This document shows positions 129 through 27,687 of a stretch of DNA of 64,000 nucleotides, piece after piece (the first letter of the stretch is position 1; each line of letters begins with the position of its first letter). This DNA is from Dehalococcoidia bacterium (GTDB taxonomy: Bacteria > Chloroflexota > Dehalococcoidia > Lucifugimonadales > JADFKI01), in NCBI GenBank assembly GCA_965200085.1, contig OZ241333.1, positions 2,403,704 through 2,467,703 of the forward strand. Direction: 5' to 3'. A program made the position numbers and the translations under genes. Under the pieces are notes generated by a model, which made no database searches, was not told the origin of the DNA, and was given only the letters and a program-made list of their open reading frames with translations.

Positions 129-182
129 AAGCTCCCGCACTGACAGAGTGCCAACACCTGTTTGCTAAAAAGGGAGGACACG

Positions 183-986
183 ATGACCACTGAAACCACC
201 GCCATTGTCTATCCTGAAACGGACGGAATGCCATTGCCAGACGGAGAGTATCAAGCACCACTATACAGAGATGTTGTCAGTACACTCGAGACGCATTTCG
301 AGAATGTGCCCAATTCAAAAGTGAACGGCAACACCTTCATATACTACCGGGAGGGCGATCCCCGCCGTTCTGTGTCTCCGGACTGCTATGTTGCACTGTT
401 CCTGTCGGAGGACGCCGCAGCTTCGATAGAGCGCAACAACGTCTATCTGCTTTGGGAAGTCGGCAAGGCTCCTGACTTCGTGCTTGAGATAGGCTCTGAG
501 AGCACCGCTAGGAACGACATGACACGAAAGCGCACCCTGTACGCTGAGCTGGGAGTTCAGGAGTATTGGCGCTATGACGCGAGCGGCGGTGATTTCTACG
601 ATGAGCCGCTGGTGGGTGAGACTCTGCTGGATGATGAGTATGTGAGGTTGGAGCATCGCAGCGATGAAGAGGGCAGACTGTGGTCGCACAGTGCGGTGTT
701 GAATCTGGACCTGTGCTGGGATGAAGGTGTTCTGCGTTTCTGGGATCCTGCTGCGAACGTCTGGCTGCTGAACCACCGGGAAGAGCATGAAGGGCGCTTG
801 CAAGAGCGCGAGGGGCGACTAGCGGCGGAAGCCGAGAGTATGCGGGAGCGCGAAGGTCGCCTACGAGAGCGCGAAGGTCGCCTACGAGAGCAGGAAGCGC
901 GTCTGCAAGAGCGCGAAGAACGCCTGACTGCAGAAGCTCGAATAGCGGAGCTGGAAGCCGAACTCAGACGATACCACGGCGAATAG
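183..986 (+). CDS. Uma2-family (DUF820) putative PD-(D/E)xK endonuclease with Glu/Arg heptad coiled-coil tail
   Basis: The track ORF is 162-986. ATG 183 is preferred because GGAGG sits at 173-177 with a 5-nt spacer. Family-typical motifs are YPETDGMPLPDGEYQ, SPDCYV, APDFVLEIGSEST and LYAELGVQEYWRYD. Confidence 0.85.
   Translation: MTTETTAIVYPETDGMPLPDGEYQAPLYRDVVSTLETHFENVPNSKVNGNTFIYYREGDPRRSVSPDCYVALFLSEDAAASIERNNVYLLWEVGKAPDFVLEIGSESTARNDMTRKRTLYAELGVQEYWRYDASGGDFYDEPLVGETLLDDEYVRLEHRSDEEGRLWSHSAVLNLDLCWDEGVLRFWDPAANVWLLNHREEHEGRLQEREGRLAAEAESMREREGRLREREGRLREQEARLQEREERLTAEARIAELEAELRRYHGE
804..929 (+). repeat. Imperfect 21-bp (heptad-encoding) tandem repeat inside the Uma2 tail
   Basis: GAGCGCGAAGGTCGCCTACGA occurs exactly at 846-866 and 867-887. 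Degenerate copies lie at 804-824, 888-908 and 909-929, encoding EREGRLR, EQEARLQ and EREERLT. Confidence 0.7.
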
Positions 987-1287
987 ACCCTGCCCTCGCA
1001 CCTGCCACAGCGCCAGCGCCTGCCTGCTAAAAGCGATACCCGAATACCCCACGTCAATCTGCCCCCGCGCCGCAACAGCGCCAAGCGATAATCCACCATT
1101 TCTCACACACATTTTCGCCCGGACCGGAGCCGCATGGCGCCGCGCTGCTGCAAATTGTGATTCCTATTGATACTGCTGATACTGCGGTTGTTTATTATTA
1201 GGAAAAACGCACTTTACAAAACGCATAATTAAACCTAATATATACTCGTAAATCTAATATGGGGCTTTTTCCCGCCTAACGAATATC

Positions 1288-1418: not shown

Positions 1419-4400
1419 ATGAACAAAATCCTACGACACAACAGTTATCTTTTGCGTATCAGAAACTTTACCCTCATCGCCGCCCTGGCTCTGGCTGCTT
1501 CGTTGGTCGGCATCGACATAGGCTTGACGCCCACGCCTGTCGAAAGCCAGACCACCGACCCGCTGCAGGTTCATAACACTACCATGACTGCCGCAGAATC
1601 CGGCACTGATGTCGGCTATGACAAAGGGTTTCAGGGGTCAATTGGGGATGCCACATTCACAATTGGCACCACAGATTACGAGATCGACTCCCTGCTCACT
1701 AGAAGCGATTCTGATGGAAAGATACTCAGGTACGCGGACGTAAGCGAAAGATTCAGCGCAGCCACTGAAAGCAGACTCCTGCTCATCATTAACGACAGAA
1801 CCTACAAATTCAGTGATGCCACTGAACCTTCAGGCAGCGTTGCTTACCATTGGGACATCACTGATGATGAACTATTTGTGGACGAAGGATCTTACCCGTT
1901 CCATCTCATCTATGCCCCTGAAGAGCCGGGCAGCGCCAGTATCAGCGATGCGGGCGTGATTACCTGGACTTCCCACAGCGACACCTCCTCGTACTCGGTT
2001 CGCCACCTGCAGCCCGGCGCGGACTGGACGGAAGTGGAAAACGCCACCAGCCCTTATCAGATACCGAACTTTACATCCGTTGGCGCGGTACACTTCCAGG
2101 TTTGCGCTCATGCTTCTGCCGTCGATGATCTAATGACCTGCACCGACGAGATGGTCGTCATTCACGGCGAGCCGCTGGGCGTGCTGCACACCACCCTGCA
2201 TGCCAAAGATACTGGCGGCGACATCGGCTATGACTTCTTTGACGGCCTCGGACTTGCCGTCGGAAGCATCGATAATCTCAAGTTCACAACTGACGCCACA
2301 AATCACACGATCAAATCCCTGTTCACCAATGCCACTGATAATCACCTCTGGTTCGCGATTAAAAGCGGCGAATTAAGCGATGACACTAAGAGCAGACTCC
2401 TGCTCATCATCAACGGCAACACTTACAAGTTCAGCGATGCCACAGAACCTTCAGGCGAAACCGGCACTTACGATTGGGACATCACCGACGCTGAAGAATT
2501 CGTGGTCGAAACATCTTACGTGTTCTGGCTAATCTACGCCCCTCAAACGCCCGGCAACGCCAATGCCAGCAATCACGGCGTGGTTACCTGGGATTCCCAT
2601 GACGACACTTCCTCATACTCGGTTCGCTACAAGGAGTCCGGCGCGACTGAGTGGATGGAAGTAGAAGACGTCTCCAGCCCCTACCAGATACCGGGCATTA
2701 CCCGGGGGACTGAGTACGATGTCCAGGTTTGCGCCAACGCCTCTGCCGTCGATCTTGAGGCCTGCACCGCCGACCTCACCTTCGTCAACGACCCGCTGGT
2801 TGTTCTGCACACGACCCTGAATGCCGCAGACTCTGCCGGCGACATCGGCTATGACGGCGGATTTGGCGACGGAAGCATCGATAATCGCAAATTCAAAATT
2901 GACACCACGGAATACACGATCGAATCACTGTACACCAGGGCCTCTGAAAACATACTCCGGTTCGAGACCGTAAGCGGAAAACTCGGCGATACCGCCGAAA
3001 GCAGACTCCTGCTCATCATCAACGGCAACACTTACAAGTTCAGCGAAGCCACAGAACATGCCACACTTGGAAGATACGATTGGACCATCACTAGCGGTGA
3101 ACGATTTACAGACGGAACCGCTTACCCGTTCTATCTCATCTATATGCCTGAAGAACCTGACAGCGCTATGGTCAGCGATACGGGCGCTGTTACCTGGACT
3201 ACCCACAGCGACACCTCCTCGTACTCGGTTCGCCACAAGCAGCCCGGTGCGGACTGGACGGAGGTAGAAAACGCCACCGTCCCGTACCAGATACCGAACC
3301 TTTCCATTGGAGCGGTACACTTCCAGGTTTGTGCTCATGCCGCGGCCGTCGAGCTTGAGACCTGCACCGATGAGATGATTATCATCTACGGCGAACCGCT
3401 GGGCGTTATGCACACGACTATGACTGCCGCGGAACTCGGCTTTGATGTCGGCTATGACGAGCCGTTCGAGCAGGGGGCGGTCGGGAATCGTAAGTTCACA
3501 ATTGGCGCCACCGAGCACATGCTCCAATCCCTCTACACTACACCCGTTACTCCAACAAGTAAGCTCACGTTCCAGAGCGCGACGGGAACACTCGGCGATG
3601 ACGCTGAAAGCAGGCTGCTGCTCATCATTAACGGCAGAACTTACAAGTTCAGTGAAGCCGAAGAAAGCACTTCCACACCTGGACTATACCTGTTCGCCAT
3701 CACTAGCGATGAATATTTTACAGCCGGAAGCTCTTATCCGTTCTGGCTTATCTATGCGCCTGAAGAACCCGACAGCGCCAGTGTCAGCGATGAGGGCGAG
3801 GTTACATGGACTGACCACGCCGACACTTCCTCGTACTCGGTTCGCTACAAGCAGCCCGGCGATGCCAACTGGACGGAAGTGGAAGACGCCACCAGCCCGT
3901 ACCAGATACCGAGCCTTTCCATCGGCGCGGTGCACGTCCAGGTTTGCGCCCATGCCGCCGCCGATGACGATGTTAAGACCTGCACAGACGAGATGATCGT
4001 CATCTACGGCGAACCGCTGGGCGTTCTGCACACGACCATGAATTCCGTGGACCTCAGCCCTGATACCGGCTTTGACATCTGTTGCCTGGGGTCAGTGGAG
4101 AATAGCAAGTTCACCCTTGGCGCCACCGAGTACACGCTCAAAGTCTTGCTCACCAGGGATGGTTTCTCACAAGATCGGCTCATGTTCCAGAGCGACCCTG
4201 AACCATTCAGCGATGACGTTAAAAGCCGGCTGGTTCTCGTCATCAACGACAGAACTTACAAGTTCAGTGAAGCCGACTATCGTGATCTTCTCACTGGAAA
4301 CTACTACACGTGGGACATCCCCAGCGATGAACTTTTTGCGGACGAAACCGCCTACCCGTTCTGGCTTATCTACGCGCCGGAAGAGCCGGGCAGCGCCAGC

Positions 4401-4814
4401 GCTACCAACGAGGGCGTTGTTACTTGGACTACCCATGACGACACCGCTTCGTACTCGGTTCGCCACAAAGATTCCGACACACAGGATTGGACGACAGCGG
4501 CAGACGTTGAAAGTCCCTACCAGATAACAGGGCTTTCCCCTGGCATTGAATATACCATCCAGGTTTGCGCCCATGCTGCTGCCGACGACGATGTAATGAC
4601 CTGCACCGCCGACATCACCATCACGACGCCTACGACGCCCAGCCCGACGCCTACGGCTACGATGACGCCTACTCCGACAATGACACCTACTCCGACAATG
4701 ACACCGACGCCTAGCCCTACACCTACGGAGACAACGACGCCTACTGCGACGCCAACAGAGACGATGACTCCCACGGCTACAGTGACGCCTACGGCTACCC
4801 GACGGCAACGATGA
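1419..4814 (+). CDS. Secreted or cell-surface repeat protein, N-terminal part: signal/TM segment, five tandem ~205-aa modules and a PT linker. The frame breaks at 4797-4801.
   Basis: 1131-aa ORF. The N-terminal hydrophobic segment is FTLIAALALAASLVGI. Five copies of (E/K)SRL(L/V)L(I/V)IN(D/G)xTYKFS(D/E)A...YPF(H/W/Y)LIY are each followed by an Fn3-like unit (VTWTxHxDTSSYSVR(H/Y)K...SPYQIP...VQVCAHA). It ends in TPTPTM-type linker sequence, then RRQR*. Confidence 0.85.
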   Translation: MNKILRHNSYLLRIRNFTLIAALALAASLVGIDIGLTPTPVESQTTDPLQVHNTTMTAAESGTDVGYDKGFQGSIGDATFTIGTTDYEIDSLLTRSDSDGKILRYADVSERFSAATESRLLLIINDRTYKFSDATEPSGSVAYHWDITDDELFVDEGSYPFHLIYAPEEPGSASISDAGVITWTSHSDTSSYSVRHLQPGADWTEVENATSPYQIPNFTSVGAVHFQVCAHASAVDDLMTCTDEMVVIHGEPLGVLHTTLHAKDTGGDIGYDFFDGLGLAVGSIDNLKFTTDATNHTIKSLFTNATDNHLWFAIKSGELSDDTKSRLLLIINGNTYKFSDATEPSGETGTYDWDITDAEEFVVETSYVFWLIYAPQTPGNANASNHGVVTWDSHDDTSSYSVRYKESGATEWMEVEDVSSPYQIPGITRGTEYDVQVCANASAVDLEACTADLTFVNDPLVVLHTTLNAADSAGDIGYDGGFGDGSIDNRKFKIDTTEYTIESLYTRASENILRFETVSGKLGDTAESRLLLIINGNTYKFSEATEHATLGRYDWTITSGERFTDGTAYPFYLIYMPEEPDSAMVSDTGAVTWTTHSDTSSYSVRHKQPGADWTEVENATVPYQIPNLSIGAVHFQVCAHAAAVELETCTDEMIIIYGEPLGVMHTTMTAAELGFDVGYDEPFEQGAVGNRKFTIGATEHMLQSLYTTPVTPTSKLTFQSATGTLGDDAESRLLLIINGRTYKFSEAEESTSTPGLYLFAITSDEYFTAGSSYPFWLIYAPEEPDSASVSDEGEVTWTDHADTSSYSVRYKQPGDANWTEVEDATSPYQIPSLSIGAVHVQVCAHAAADDDVKTCTDEMIVIYGEPLGVLHTTMNSVDLSPDTGFDICCLGSVENSKFTLGATEYTLKVLLTRDGFSQDRLMFQSDPEPFSDDVKSRLVLVINDRTYKFSEADYRDLLTGNYYTWDIPSDELFADETAYPFWLIYAPEEPGSASATNEGVVTWTTHDDTASYSVRHKDSDTQDWTTAADVESPYQITGLSPGIEYTIQVCAHAAADDDVMTCTADITITTPTTPSPTPTATMTPTPTMTPTPTMTPTPSPTPTETTTPTATPTETMTPTATVTPTATRRQR
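1566..4620 (+). repeat. Five tandem intragenic repeats of about 610 bp (approximate limits)
   Basis: The ESRLLLIIN motif recurs at about 1768, 2391, 2997, 3606 and 4222. Nt 2391-2447 and 3000-3056 are identical except for 1 nt over 57 nt. Confidence 0.8.
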
Positions 4815-4843
4815 CGGCTACGGTTACGCCGACCGCAACTATG
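4621..4843 (+). repeat. Pro/Thr-rich linker-coding low-complexity repeat spanning the frameshift
   Basis: It encodes TPTTPSPTPTATMTPTPTMTPTPTM...TVTPTAT in frame A, then continues as PTATMTATVTPTATM in the -1 frame. Confidence 0.75.
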
Positions 4844-6409
4844 GGTCCGCTTCCCGGAATGCCCACGGATGTTACGATCGATGTGTACTATGCAGGGGAG
4901 ATAATCGTTAACTGGACGGACGGCGCTGACGCCACCAGCCATCAAGTTCGGATCGGCACCAGCAGCGGCAGCGGCGACTGGGTGTCCCCGAATGACCCCT
5001 ACATCCCCAGCCCTCTTCACCCGGCGAAGCACAAGTTCACCGGGCTGTCTAGCGGCACGATGTATTACATAGGGGTGCGCGCAGTCAACGGTAATGGGAA
5101 CAGCCAGGTGGTTGAGCTTACCGGCGTGCCGATGAACAACGTAGCCTACTACGATATTGCTTCGGGGGACGGTGAGCTTACCGTGAGCTGGCCAGCTGCG
5201 GCCGGCGCCACCAGTTACCAGCTGCGCATACACACTCCGATCAAGCTCCCGACCGACGGCACATTTGCTGAAACAACTGAGCTGTCGTACACCTTCAGCG
5301 GCTTGACGAATGGCATTACTTACCATGGCCAGCTGTCCAGCAAGAACGCAACCGGCTCCTTAAAATCCGCTGTGGCTTGGGATGGCGCTCCCCAGACGCC
5401 GATGGAAGCCCCGGAGGGACTCACGACTGAAGCCGGGAATATGGAGCTGACCGTAAGCTGGGACGATGTCGAGGACGCGACCGGTTACGAAATTCGGTAC
5501 AGCGACGAAATGAACGGCGGCGACTGGATGCAGGCAAGCAGCCCCCACGTGATTACCGGATTGACCAACGACACGATGTACTACGTCCAGGCGCGCGGCA
5601 AGAACAGCGGCGGACACGGTCCGGCGGCATCTGCCAGCGGCATGCCGGAGGAGGTGCTCATACAGGGTCTCGAAATAACCCCAGGCGACCAGCAGCTGCA
5701 TTTGAGCTGGGACGCGATGCCGAACGCACAATTCTACGATGTTGGGATTGTGCAGGTTCCATCGGGAGGGGGCTTGCAGAACTGGAGGAATGTCGGATCG
5801 GTTACAACTTATACCGTGACGGAACTCGTGCCGGATTCCGGTGAGGAGCTCTGGAACGGGACTGATTACCTCGTGGGTGTGCGCGGCGGACTGCCGAACG
5901 ATCGTTTCACGCAGGTACTCGCCGGCTTGGGCACTCCGGGGGAGGAAACGCCAACGCCAACAGCGACGATGACGCCGACTCCGACGATGACGCCGACGCC
6001 AACTATGACGCCAACTATGACGCCAACTATGACGCCAACGATGACACCGACTCCGACTATGACGCCGACACCGACCATGACGCCGACTCCGACTATGACG
6101 CCGACACCAACTATGACGCCGACTCCGACCATGACGCCAACGATGACACCGACACCAACTATGACACCGACTCCGACTATGACGCCAACGATGACACCGA
6201 CACCAACTATGACGCCGACTCCGACGATGACGCCGACGCCAACGATGACACCGACGCCGACAGCGACGCCGGAACCTACAAGATCGCCTCGTACGCCGGA
6301 ACCTACGGTTACGGTTGAGCCGCCAGATCCTCCGCTTACGCCGGAACCTACTATGCCACCACCACTTACGCCGGAACCTACAAATACAAAAGTGCCTATA
6401 GACCTGTAG
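4811..6409 (+). CDS. C-terminal part of the same surface protein: four fibronectin type III-like domains, a long (TPTPTM)n/(TPTM)n linker and a PEPT-rich tail
   Basis: 532-aa ORF. Fn3 signatures are ELTVSWPAAAGATSYQLRI, MELTVSWDDVEDATGYEIRY, QLHLSWDAMPNAQFYDV and FTGLSSGTMYYIGVRAVNGNG. The frame is open upstream of ATG 4811 and continues the PT linker of the preceding ORF. Confidence 0.8.
   Translation: MTATVTPTATMGPLPGMPTDVTIDVYYAGEIIVNWTDGADATSHQVRIGTSSGSGDWVSPNDPYIPSPLHPAKHKFTGLSSGTMYYIGVRAVNGNGNSQVVELTGVPMNNVAYYDIASGDGELTVSWPAAAGATSYQLRIHTPIKLPTDGTFAETTELSYTFSGLTNGITYHGQLSSKNATGSLKSAVAWDGAPQTPMEAPEGLTTEAGNMELTVSWDDVEDATGYEIRYSDEMNGGDWMQASSPHVITGLTNDTMYYVQARGKNSGGHGPAASASGMPEEVLIQGLEITPGDQQLHLSWDAMPNAQFYDVGIVQVPSGGGLQNWRNVGSVTTYTVTELVPDSGEELWNGTDYLVGVRGGLPNDRFTQVLAGLGTPGEETPTPTATMTPTPTMTPTPTMTPTMTPTMTPTMTPTPTMTPTPTMTPTPTMTPTPTMTPTPTMTPTMTPTPTMTPTPTMTPTMTPTPTMTPTPTMTPTPTMTPTPTATPEPTRSPRTPEPTVTVEPPDPPLTPEPTMPPPLTPEPTNTKVPIDL
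5948..6270 (+). repeat. Coding tandem repeat of 12- and 18-bp units (ATGACGCCNACN / ATGACGCCGACTCCGACN)
   Basis: About 320 nt encode TPTPTATMTPTPTMTPTPTMTPTMTPTMTPTM... with synonymous variation between units. Confidence 0.85.
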
Positions 6410-6442: not shown

Positions 6443-6480
6443 AAGAGGCGTCCCTCGTCAGACGGCGGGGGACGCCTCTT
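6443..6480 (+). terminator. Stem-loop downstream of the surface-protein gene
   Basis: AAGAGGCGTCCC (6443-6454) pairs with GGGACGCCTCTT (6469-6480), 34 nt after stop 6409. No clear U-tract follows. Confidence 0.45.
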
Positions 6481-7012: not shown

Positions 7013-7360
7013 TTAATCCACGTTCACCTTAACGATGACGGCGGCGTTGGCAATGATAGTAACGTCGCCGGAGCCTTCCCTGCCCTCGATCTCCAATCCC
7101 CCCTGCACGACCTTCAGCACGCCTTTGCCATGCGGCAGTACGCTTAGAACTTCATCGTGGTTGACGGCTTCGGGGTTCGGTATGCCGATTGTTACTTCAA
7201 CAATCATCTCCTTTGATGTGTTGGGCCCAAGCAGTCCGAGAAACATCAGGCTGCTCTGGTGAACGGCGTTCCATGTCGCGCGTTTTGCGGCTTCGGTGTA
7301 GTCTTGCCCGTGCAAGTCTATGCCCGTCCCCATTTCAAGAATCGCAGGTGTAAGCGGCAT
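7013..7360 (-). CDS. Lin0512-family conserved hypothetical protein
   Basis: LEMGTGIDLHGQDYTEAAKRATWNAV matches my recollection of the Lin0512 family N-terminus. ATG 7360 is preceded by GGAGGG, so the track ORF start at 7378 is probably too long. Confidence 0.55.
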   Translation of the reverse strand: MPLTPAILEMGTGIDLHGQDYTEAAKRATWNAVHQSSLMFLGLLGPNTSKEMIVEVTIGIPNPEAVNHDEVLSVLPHGKGVLKVVQGGLEIEGREGSGDVTIIANAAVIVKVNVD

Positions 7361-7555
7361 TTTTCCCTCCGGCTGCAAGTCGTGTTAGCTGTAAGTTAAC
7401 AGATGAGTGAAAGTTTGGGGCTAATTTGAACGCCTGTCAAGTTCCTGAAATTAAAATTCGCGCAGCGCATCAGTTTGAAATCTTTGCTGCATCATTGGCA
7501 GCCGCATAATTCAAACTGACCCACTATCAAAATCAAAATTCGCGTGGAAACTCAA

Positions 7556-7595: not shown

Positions 7596-7670
7596 GCGGG
7601 AGTAGCTCAGGGGTAGAGCATCTGCTTCCCAAGCAGAATGTCGCGGGTTCGAATCCCGTCTCCCGCTCCA
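7596..7670 (+). tRNA. tRNA-Gly (anticodon CCC), CCA encoded
   Basis: Folded by hand. Acceptor GCGGGAG/CTCCCGC, D arm GCTC-AGGGGTA-GAGC, anticodon arm TCTGC-TTCCCAA-GCAGA, T arm GCGGG-TTCGAAT-CCCGT, then T-CCA. Confidence 0.9.
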
Positions 7671-25328: not shown

Positions 25329-25470
25329 TCCATCCTCTCGGTCAATCCGCGCCGCACCTCATTTTTATACTAAAGATATAAACATTCTAAATTATCGTTC
25401 AGAAAATGGACTAAATTTGCGTTGACCGTAATTTATGCTCTTTTGTACTTTGGCTATGTGGAGGTGTGAT

Positions 25471-27687
25471 ATGCCCAAAATTAAACTCGCATTCGTTCTA
25501 GTAGCAATAGTATTCCTTTCGTGGACCGTAAGCCAAACAAATCTCTTACACGCAGAAAGCAGCGAACCGCTCTATATCGTAGTAGTGGACAGGCATGCTG
25601 CCGGTATGTCTCAGGAAAACCAAGACCTGGCAGTCTCATTTGTAGGTTTGCTGTCTGCACTTCGTGAGAACCAACGCGTCGGCTTCTTGACAGCAGACAG
25701 CGAAGAATTTATCGGCCCAGCGGTATCAGGCAGCGCCGAGCACAAGAACGCATACAAAGAATTAACCGCCAGAATAGAGGATTCCTCCTCTGTTCCCGCA
25801 CATGACCTGTCAGCATCCTTATCTTACGCTCATGAACTAATGAAGTTCGAGAGCGCGGGCGAAGGCTCGACAGTCTATGTCGTATCAGGCGGCGAGCTGG
25901 AAGGCGAAGCCCCATTCGAAGCATTCCCGATAGGCGATACAATCAGCGCTTTCAACAGGGATAACTGGCATGTTGTCAGCATTGCTCTGCCGGGCTCTTC
26001 GACCTATGCGAAGGATTTCATGCGCACCGCATCAAGCGGCACCGGAGGCGACGTCTTTCCGCTGTCAACACCGCAGGAACTCAAACTCATCGCAGACAGC
26101 GTTCTAAGCGTGGACGCGAGAGGCTCTCTCTTTGAGATAGGCCAAAACGAACTAGCGCCCACCGACGTATTCACCGCACCCATCGAGGTCGCCCCAAGCA
26201 CTACCGAGTCCTCCATAGTGTTTTTCAAACAGGGAGCCGCAGGCTCTCTCAGCCTGCAAAACCCGGCTGGAATCAAGGCGTCTGAAGGGGATCGCGCCCT
26301 ATCTAGCGTAATAGAAACTCCCCACGCGGTCGTCTGGACGCTTACAGATCCGGCTCCCGGTGAATGGGTGGTAGATGTTCGCGGCGCTAATGGGTTCATC
26401 TCCGCCTGGCACTACCCCAACCACAAGCTTAATCTTAATCTTGTGTCCTTTGAGACGATTCCGTTTGATCAAAACAATGAAATCGTGGCTTATGTATCCG
26501 ACGGAGAAACGCGCGTAGATGTACCCAACGCCGAACTACGCGCCACTATTATCGACACCACCGGACAAATATTCACATACACCCTGAACGACAATGGTGA
26601 ACTTGGCGATTCTATCCCAGGAGATTTGTACTACTCGACTACGGTCCCTCCGCTGAGTGCAGAAGGCAAGCACAACATAGAACTGGAACTATACTGGCCC
26701 GAGTATGAGCACTCTATATTCACGCGCAATTCCGTTATGGCACAGGGCTTCCCTGTACTAGATGTTGACCTCACACATACTGAGGGTCTCACGCTCGGCA
26801 AGCGCGCAACCATCGGCACTGTAGAAGTTAAGGTCAACGAACAGCCTTACGGCATACCCACCAGCATGATCTCCGCCGAAATCTTGTCAGAAAGCGGCAA
26901 AGGCGTCGTAGAGATTATTCCGAGGGAACTGTTGAACACCGGGCACGCTTGGAATTTCGACATCGTGTTTACGCCGGCAGAAGAGGAACTTCACACCCTT
27001 TTCCTCCGTCTGGACATGGAGTATGCTGCACGCGAATACAGCTTCATGGCGAACTCTCAGGTGCTTTCTTCGTTCGCTCTTCCGGCAGCGCCTCCAACTC
27101 AATCAGTCGTAGTTCCAGTTCAGCAGAGTCAGCCTTCTCCGCCTCCTGTCGTAGTCCAGCCGGCACCGCCTGCGCCTGTCGTTGTTGAGCAGCCCCCTGC
27201 GCTGCCACAAGAGAGCGGAAGCTTCCCGGTGATGGCGGTAATATACACAGTGGCAAGTGCACTGGCACTGATTGTGATTGCGGCGCTAATCTATGTAGCT
27301 TACAGGCTGACACGCCCAAGTCCTTACGGCTACCTGTACGATGACACGGGCAAATTACTGGTAGATTTCTCAACTATTGAGCGTCCGTTCGCTACACTGC
27401 TGACATCCAAAAACCTGCTGCGCGGCGAAGAACTAGACGTCCCCGAAATGCGAGGATTGTCTTTCTATTACACGAAGGGCAATGTGGACATACGCAGCTC
27501 ACAGACGGAGCCAACCATTCGAGTCAACAATCGTCCGCTGATTAATGGTCAAGAAACTCGCTCGCTCAACCAGTCATGGATCGGCACACAGGGCAAACTC
27601 TTCAGCCTGTATTTGATGAAACCCGACCAAGCATCTGAGCCTTCAGTTGCGCCCATAGCAGGCGATGCCATAGCAGGCGATGATTAA
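25471..27687 (+). CDS. Large single-pass membrane protein: signal peptide, vWA-like N-domain (MIDAS not conserved), Ig-like beta region, Pro-rich stalk, TM helix and a cytosolic FHA-like C-terminal domain
   Basis: ATG 25471 follows GGAGG. LYIVVVDRHAAGMS...VYVVSGGE is vWA-like. The Pro-rich stalk is PAAPPTQSVVVPVQQSQPSPPPVVVQPAPPAPVVVEQPP. The TM helix is FPVMAVIYTVASALALIVIAALIYVAY. The C-terminal YGYLYDDTGKLL...LLRGEELDV...IRVNNRPLINGQ is FHA-like. Both domain calls are tentative. Confidence 0.6.
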   Translation: MPKIKLAFVLVAIVFLSWTVSQTNLLHAESSEPLYIVVVDRHAAGMSQENQDLAVSFVGLLSALRENQRVGFLTADSEEFIGPAVSGSAEHKNAYKELTARIEDSSSVPAHDLSASLSYAHELMKFESAGEGSTVYVVSGGELEGEAPFEAFPIGDTISAFNRDNWHVVSIALPGSSTYAKDFMRTASSGTGGDVFPLSTPQELKLIADSVLSVDARGSLFEIGQNELAPTDVFTAPIEVAPSTTESSIVFFKQGAAGSLSLQNPAGIKASEGDRALSSVIETPHAVVWTLTDPAPGEWVVDVRGANGFISAWHYPNHKLNLNLVSFETIPFDQNNEIVAYVSDGETRVDVPNAELRATIIDTTGQIFTYTLNDNGELGDSIPGDLYYSTTVPPLSAEGKHNIELELYWPEYEHSIFTRNSVMAQGFPVLDVDLTHTEGLTLGKRATIGTVEVKVNEQPYGIPTSMISAEILSESGKGVVEIIPRELLNTGHAWNFDIVFTPAEEELHTLFLRLDMEYAAREYSFMANSQVLSSFALPAAPPTQSVVVPVQQSQPSPPPVVVQPAPPAPVVVEQPPALPQESGSFPVMAVIYTVASALALIVIAALIYVAYRLTRPSPYGYLYDDTGKLLVDFSTIERPFATLLTSKNLLRGEELDVPEMRGLSFYYTKGNVDIRSSQTEPTIRVNNRPLINGQETRSLNQSWIGTQGKLFSLYLMKPDQASEPSVAPIAGDAIAGDD

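Follow-up and report, generated by a model that had tools for sequence, protein, structure and literature searches.

Close to the left end of the window, that is the whole 64,000-nucleotide (nt) stretch of a Dehalococcoidia bacterium that we analysed (contig OZ241333.1 of assembly GCA_965200085.1, positions 2,403,704 to 2,467,703 of the forward strand), lies a locus for a large repetitive protein with five copies of a domain that we call X, each followed by a fibronectin type III (Fn3) unit. The initial annotation had read this region, 1419-6409, as a single open reading frame (ORF) of about 1,660 codons. Its length of 4,991 nt is no multiple of 3, and the ORF listing gives two plus-strand ORFs in different frames with an ATGA overlap, so that the single ORF has to be replaced by a frameshifted pair. 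The features of the locus are the following (amino acid (aa) positions are those of ORF1):

1419-4814, plus strand: ORF1, 1131 aa; signal/anchor segment, five X-Fn3 modules and the beginning of Pro/Thr linker 1
1458-1532, plus strand: sole hydrophobic segment, RIRNFTLIAALALAASLVGIDIGL (aa 14-38; Kyte-Doolittle scan)
1569-1913, plus strand: X1 (aa 51-165), 65.6 bits against the profile of non-window relatives
1914-2168, plus strand: Fn3-1, Cys pair C229 and C241
2184-2537, plus strand: X2 (aa 256-373), 53.3 bits against the non-window profile
2538-2792, plus strand: Fn3-2, Cys pair C438 and C449
2805-3143, plus strand: X3 (aa 463-575), the copy modelled, 62.8 bits against the non-window profile
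3144-3398, plus strand: Fn3-3, Cys pair C638 and C649
3408-3755, plus strand: X4 (aa 664-779), 44.1 bits against the non-window profile
3756-4013, plus strand: Fn3-4, Cys pair C843 and C855
4026-4373, plus strand: X5 (aa 870-985), the most divergent copy, 43.2 bits against the non-window profile
4374-4634, plus strand: Fn3-5, Cys pair C1050 and C1062; best PF00041 stretch at aa 997-1054
4635-4852, plus strand: Pro/Thr linker 1, spanning the frame change
4796-4801, plus strand: putative 1-nt deletion site, a 29-nt copy of a 30-nt linker repeat where the Pro/Thr frame switches
4811-6409, plus strand: ORF2, 532 aa; remainder of linker 1, four Cys-free Fn3 domains and a Pro/Thr tail of about 155 aa
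4853-5131, 5132-5398, 5399-5653 and 5654-5941, plus strand: Fn3-6 to Fn3-9; PF00041 at 74.2 bits in 3 stretches, four units with the local profile
5942-6406, plus strand: Pro/Thr linker 2 and C-terminal tail; TPTPTM repeats with periods of 18, 36 and 48

The five tandem modules proposed initially were all recovered, with starts at aa 51, 256, 463, 664/666 and 870 of ORF1 and periods of 203-207 aa. Each module opens with an X of about 115 aa, which carries the motifs GxDxGYD, SRLLLIINGxTYKFSxA and YPFWLIY and ends with the last of these, and continues with an Fn3 unit of about 85 aa holding two Cys 11-12 residues apart, likely on the F and G strands. X5 additionally has an adjacent Cys-Cys at aa 888-889 (4080-4085, DICCLGS) that is missing from the other four X copies. 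The Fn3 assignment was confirmed by PF00041, which scored 51.8 bits in ORF1 and 74.2 bits in ORF2 for a cut-off of 25. With a local Fn3 profile we delimited five units in ORF1 and four in ORF2, and the four further Fn3 units and two Pro/Thr linkers expected downstream of the modules are present.

The X segments had been presented as an unrecognised sequence, a claim that would fall with a match to a well-described Pfam domain. By scanning Pfam-A at the gathering cut-offs, we found no match to the X segments of the window, Pfam covering only Fn3, and the NCBIfam scan of both ORFs gave no family at all. Then, we used a combined alignment of 55 X sequences, 50 of them from outside the window, and scanned its members singly against Pfam at E≤1. 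No family was matched by more than two members, the best single match being to PF14683 (E = 6e-4), and NCBIfam and PHROGs yielded only scattered single-member matches at E≥0.01. Likewise, PDB sequences gave no match to either the five-copy profile (A1) or the 55-sequence profile. X is therefore not a known lectin, carbohydrate-binding module (CBM) or cadherin-like Pfam domain, and the claim of novelty stood. Nor could X be taken for a divergent Fn3, since hhalign of X against the Fn3 units of the window returned a probability of 0.4%.

By searching 1.84 billion cluster representatives exhaustively with HMMER, we found that the X profile matches 90 proteins at E≤1e-3, 13 of them at E≤1e-10 and none at E≤1e-30. 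The matches fall in two to nine separate stretches of proteins of up to 7,296 aa, at about 20-27% identity to the window copies, and share the signature W.G.VTVG...GYGF...G.LSD..F.VG.N.YTID...L.F.L.S.LT...L.LHV...F.FSDA...Y.W..GLDWS...VTLRL. In the reverse direction, the profile of the 50 non-window members found exactly the five X copies of the window, with 43-66 bits each and 244 in total, and matched nothing else among the 828 six-frame ORFs of the window. This recovery in both directions upholds the suggestion that X is worth defining as a domain family. With the combined profile, 311 X copies could be counted in 87 of the 90 proteins (median 3, maximum 17). An Fn3 immediately follows X in at least 38 cases, for example in the relatives labelled P0006, P0015, P0042 and P0051. 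The relatives scanned in full also hold Cadherin-like, Cadherin_3/4/5, Big_9, Calx-beta, SWM_repeat, F5/8 type C, SRCR and fn3 domains, and the Pfam families recorded for genes beside two of the relatives are Cadherin, Cadherin-like, SRCR, Calx-beta, SWM_repeat and fn3. At the other end of the size range, P0103 (200 aa) consists of a signal peptide and a single X. Since X stands alone there, it is an autonomous unit. All 10 representatives that we looked up were unnamed, ENA-only proteins from clusters of 1-3 members, and the 13 matches of a word-indexed search were from ENA or Logan only. No match to the five-copy profile was obtained in the word-indexed set of 5.8 billion proteins, and no X was detected by sequence (tblastn) in phages or plasmids. 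Together, these data place X in an all-beta domain family of about 115-125 residues that had not been described before. This repeat family extends to giant multi-domain proteins of extracellular type, among which the window protein is a divergent case, and X is not confined to it.

Some of these relatives have further features of their own. P0012 and P0015 share a C-terminal region of about 300-400 aa, which begins with ...(F/A)WG..A.(S/T)RF.G... and ends with ...RW; P0019 is cut off just past the opening motif, and 18 of the 90 relatives end in F or W. This region resembles the translocator barrel of outer-membrane autotransporters, but no Pfam family matches it and we rejected that assignment; it may be a second uncatalogued domain. 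In one contig (L082, ENA ERZ25067264 ctg831246), positions 1-20438 hold a broken cluster of X, SRCR, Fn3, Cadherin-like and Calx-beta domains. This cluster is flanked by a Cas9-Cas2 locus with an AbiEii gene and by AAA_30/TrwC (relaxase-like) genes, so that one relative at least may lie in a mobile element or a defence island.

AlphaFold2 was used to predict the structure of X3. With the five window copies as alignment, the model reached a predicted local distance difference test score (pLDDT) of 77.5 and a predicted template modelling score (pTM) of 0.75. Adding relatives, in the 55-sequence family alignment, lifted the pLDDT from 77.5 to 96.8, with a pTM of 0.89, and left the strand order unchanged, both models having about eleven strands and one short helix. 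Foldseek of the pLDDT-96.8 model against the PDB returned a best E of 0.24 with template modelling (TM) scores ≤0.40, and the five-copy model had no significant match there either. The structural check proposed at the outset thus gave a confident all-beta model without a significant fold counterpart in the PDB. The weak, non-significant PDB neighbours include CBMs and beta-sandwich domains of glycoside hydrolases. Against BFVD, a set of predicted viral structures, six matches were obtained at E≤1e-3 and a probability of 1.0, the four best-superposed of them with TM scores of 0.61-0.73 and a root-mean-square deviation of 3.2-3.9 Å over about 123 columns. The matched proteins are small and uncharacterised and belong to uncultured Caudovirales. 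Also matched was C5IHQ2 of Burkholderia phage BcepIL02 (TM score 0.62).

BcepIL02 has two proteins of 166 aa, the basic, HNH-like gp16 and the beta-rich gp60. From length and composition, we infer that C5IHQ2 corresponds to gp60. The C-terminal half of gp60 has an X-like pattern, and its gene sits between tail-fibre genes, as do its homologues in related phages. No sequence link between X and the phage proteins was found by PHROGs, hhalign or tblastn, hhalign giving no signal against either gp60 or gp16. According to the models, then, X adopts an all-beta fold similar to that of small phage proteins that are uncharacterised, and no counterpart of it could be detected in the PDB.

The repeats had also been described as very similar in their DNA and, on that basis, as recently duplicated or still undergoing gene conversion. 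The similarity is real locally: 2391-2447 and 3000-3056 agree in 56 of 57 nt. This stretch contains the longest exact run among the ten module pairs (47 nt, module 2 against module 3) and codes for the most conserved peptide, SRLLLIINGNTYKFS(D/E)ATE. Overall, the similarity does not hold, as the ten pairs are only 66-76% identical in DNA and 49-67% in protein. Moreover, codons of identical residues are also identical in DNA in 67-77% of cases, leaving synonymous differences in 23-33% of conserved codons. These differences rule out recent duplication or gene conversion as a general statement, which had been based on the one short stretch. Given the low module-wide identity, and given that the 56/57 match is the single longest run and lies on the most conserved peptide, the sequence tells us that the repeats are old overall, with at most a short local conversion tract.

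We then considered how the two ORFs relate to each other. In the three-frame translation, the Pro/Thr reading switches from frame 0 to the frame of ORF2 at about 4798/4799. At 4783-4843, a repeat with a period of 29 was detected by Tandem Repeats Finder, and the linker repeat reads TAC-CCGAC in its first copy and TACGCCGAC in its second, 30-nt copy. After the frameshift, ORF1 ends with ...TPTATRRQR, its final translated stretch being TPTATVTPTATRRQR; ORF2 starts with MTATVTPTATMGPLPG... and ends with ...TNTKVPIDL. No slippery heptamer of the form X XXY YYZ was read in the overlap 4715-4814 and a programmed frameshift was rejected. Because the heptamer is missing and the frame changes at the very place where a 30-nt repeat has a copy of only 29 nt, we prefer a simple indel. 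The following features surround the two ORFs:

1213-1241, plus strand: sigma-70-like promoter match TTTACA-17-TAATAT, 9/12 positions
1288-1319, no strand assigned: inverted repeat with a perfect 13-bp stem, CAAATATGGGCTG ... CAGCCCATATTTG, between the promoter-like site and the start codon
1403-1417, plus strand: homopolymer tract of A6 then G9, one base 5' of the ORF1 ATG and covering the ribosome-binding region (read from sequence)
6443-6480, plus strand: G+C-rich terminator-like hairpin AAGAGGCGTCCC ... GGGGACGCCTCTT, 34 nt past the stop codon (read from sequence)

Since the frame switches at the 29-nt repeat copy, ORF2 lacks a hydrophobic segment and begins inside the linker, and a promoter-like site precedes ORF1 while a hairpin follows ORF2, ORF1 and ORF2 are most likely one gene with a 1-nt deletion in Pro/Thr linker 1. 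Linkers that are repetitive and G+C-rich readily acquire indels during assembly, and the deletion may be either biological or an assembly error, both being compatible with the present sequence data. Similar breaks were seen in contigs L081 and L082, both labelled 3x coverage, where giant repeat genes are split into several consecutive same-strand ORFs; an example is P0091, with a signal peptide and one X followed by a stop. Such frameshift breaks seem common for giant repeat genes in long-read metagenome assemblies.

As for the flanking signals, the promoter-like match is weak, such sites being no commoner in the region than in shuffled sequence. The inverted repeat 1288-1319 may be an operator or form a hairpin in the 5' untranslated region; the scan scored it as terminator-like on the minus strand, and part of the hairpin 6443-6480 is likewise reported on that strand. 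Slippage in the A6G9 tract could alter its length (phase variation), and such a tract is also prone to length errors in assembly.

Export of the protein is suggested by its N-terminus. Basic residues at aa 3-15 precede a hydrophobic stretch at aa 14-38 (Kyte-Doolittle scan), which is predicted to serve either as a Sec signal peptide or, if uncleaved, as a membrane anchor at the N-terminus. The module region has a net charge of -112 over 1024 residues. Taking together the N-terminal hydrophobic segment, the paired Cys in the Fn3 units, the Pro/Thr linkers and this charge, an exported surface protein is plausible. As noted initially, no anchor can be recognised: LPx[TSA]G motifs are missing from the protein, Pfam and NCBIfam returned no S-layer homology (SLH) or other anchor family, and there is no second hydrophobic segment. 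ORF2 has neither a hydrophobic segment nor a signal peptide in the Kyte-Doolittle scan, and the hydropathy scan found no C-terminal hydrophobic segment in any frame, so no anchor is hidden by the frameshift. The C-terminus holds a Pro/Thr tail and no autotransporter beta-barrel. SAR202 genomes lack peptidoglycan synthesis genes (PMC6306507), and LPxTG- or SLH-type wall anchors are therefore unexpected.

The genes around the locus are housekeeping or metabolic, with a Uma2 nuclease upstream and a 4HBT thioesterase, tRNA-Gly, acyl-CoA dehydrogenases, argH, argG and rpe downstream. Those closest to the locus are:

162-986, plus strand: Uma2-family putative endonuclease, upstream flank
7013-7378 (minus strand) and 7596-7670 (plus strand): 4HBT thioesterase, Lin0512-family gene and tRNA-Gly(CCC), downstream flank

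The tRNA, lying near a gene that looks lineage-specific, could be a sign of an insertion hotspot. By profile scan, the window holds no other X or Fn3 gene. An ORF of 750 aa further downstream (25435-27687, plus strand) has an N-terminal signal-like segment, a Pro-rich stretch, and one C-terminal transmembrane helix with a cytoplasmic tail behind it. Pfam gave no match to this ORF at E≤1e-5, and it may encode a further envelope protein yet to be characterised. The RelA/SpoT protein of the window is 85-89% identical to proteins in several chromosomes of Dehalococcoidia metagenome-assembled genomes (MAGs) and in one contig of 'Chloroflexi bacterium SB0664_bin_29', and about 57-61% identical to those of genomes labelled SAR202. 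Fn3 domains are abundant in Chloroflexi associated with sponges, and a role in host interaction has been suggested for them (PMC5524777).

On balance, we favour the view that the locus encodes a Sec-exported, very acidic, adhesin-like surface protein of uncultured Dehalococcoidia (Chloroflexota), arranged as beads on a string and interrupted by a single-base deletion in its one gene. If its N-terminal segment stays uncleaved, the protein would be tethered to the cytoplasmic membrane; if cleaved, it would be released. Rigid and flexible spacing would be provided by the Fn3 units and the Pro/Thr stretches, and the five X domains, displayed multivalently, would bind an external ligand such as a host matrix, a glycan, a particle or a neighbouring cell, the overall action being that of a repeat adhesin. 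Should the frameshift be real, a truncated form with the five modules might still be made and exported.

Several points weigh against such an adhesin. A binding function for X is inferred from its domain company and multivalency only, and X could instead be a pure spacer. The frameshift could signal a decaying gene. A search of 5.8 billion proteins with the full ORF1 gave no match at E≤1e-10, and pattern scans of 185,579 species genomes (GTDB) and of JGI metagenomes revealed no close relative of the five-copy X alignment. Since neither line of search gave a close orthologue, the gene looks lineage- or strain-specific. Finally, the suggestion that the source is a sponge symbiont or otherwise host-associated is drawn from the names of related MAGs.

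Two alternatives concern the integrity of the gene. The 1-nt deletion in the linker and the absence of orthologues would both be expected if the frameshift were real and the locus a non-functional remnant of a strain-specific surface protein. However, one lesion is all that is found in about 5 kb, long frames remain open in both parts, and ORF1 alone would still yield an exported five-module protein. In addition, the five X copies keep the positions conserved in the family, with 43-66 bits against an independent profile, and all nine of the nine Fn3 units are intact. With linker DNA as error-prone in assembly as described above, and with similarly broken giant genes in related low-coverage long-read contigs, we regard decay as very unlikely. 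Still further from what the data suggest, to the point of being hardly credible, is that ORF1 and ORF2 are two genuine, translationally coupled genes for an X-Fn3 protein and a separate Fn3 protein. The ATG of ORF2 at 4811 does overlap the TGA of ORF1 at 4812-4814, an arrangement common in coupled genes, but ORF2 begins in the middle of a Pro/Thr linker without signal peptide or hydrophobic segment, and ORF1 ends in four off-pattern residues (RRQR) right after the repeat has lost one base.

Other readings accept the protein and assign it a different role. X might be a carbohydrate- or organic-matter-binding, CBM-like module that holds polymers at the surface for uptake. The metabolic neighbouring genes and the CBMs and glycoside hydrolase beta-sandwich domains among the fold neighbours are in line with substrate capture, as are the Pro/Thr linkers, which are typical of glycan-active modular proteins. 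Yet none of these fold neighbours has an E below 0.24 or a TM score above 0.4, no catalytic domain is found in or beside the protein, and no CBM family was matched beyond chance by the 55 X members, making capture unlikely. Alternatively, the X-Fn3 array and the Pro/Thr stretches could form a structural, S-layer-like coat in the proteinaceous envelope of a peptidoglycan-poor cell, with no external ligand at all. A large, acidic and repetitive protein with a single N-terminal anchor and no wall-anchoring motif would suit this role, and so would the missing peptidoglycan genes of SAR202-type Chloroflexi (PMC6306507). Nevertheless, a core envelope protein should be conserved and no orthologue was found even where RelA is 85-89% identical; the gene is frameshifted, and the X relatives occur in giant multi-domain adhesin-like proteins and not in known S-layer proteins. 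We therefore judge a coat to be distinctly unlikely. The phage-like fold in turn raises the idea, which we consider doubtful and which depends on the models, that X may be a new receptor- or glycan-binding fold common to phage tail-associated proteins and to the giant proteins that uncultured bacteria, marine or host-associated, carry on their surface. If so, the X-Fn3 array would be a multivalent device for host or matrix recognition; it might also act as a mimic or decoy of a phage receptor, confined to these symbiont lineages.

What is new here is the X domain, while modular repeat surface proteins are already familiar as a class, so that the gain is incremental and not conceptual. An uncatalogued extracellular domain family is added, comprising 90 or more representative clusters and over 300 copies, whose checked members are unnamed and all come from metagenome assemblies. 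Its confident model without a solved counterpart makes X a ready target for family definition and structure determination. X-type domains are working parts of giant surface proteins in uncultured marine and probably sponge-associated bacteria, and the structural similarity to phage proteins whose genes neighbour tail-fibre genes offers a testable lead to a binding function.

Compared with known systems, the locus has nine units that match Fn3 (PF00041), five of them alternating with X; the module Fn3 units carry a Cys pair, whereas the four downstream units do not. The predicted folds of the tailed-phage proteins A0A6J5N3E1, A0A8A6CBR9, A0A6J7WHF9 and C5IHQ2 match X with Foldseek probabilities of 0.97-1.0 and 14-20% sequence identity, a comparison of predicted with predicted structures. 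The closest parallel in architecture is with giant bacterial repeat adhesins, that is the cadherin-like, BIg, Calx-beta and Fn3 arrays that include the Fn3/cadherin-rich 'eukaryotic-like proteins' of sponge symbionts. The window protein differs from them in that its X belongs to no described repeat family, and it is without a type I secretion system (T1SS)/RTX element, autotransporter barrel, LPxTG motif, SLH domain or C-terminal transmembrane segment, adhesion being proposed here from sequence. Like them, it is acidic and probably exported, with many tandem all-beta modules and linkers, and its X relatives reach 7,296 aa, where X stands alongside Cadherin-like, Calx-beta, SWM_repeat and fn3 domains.

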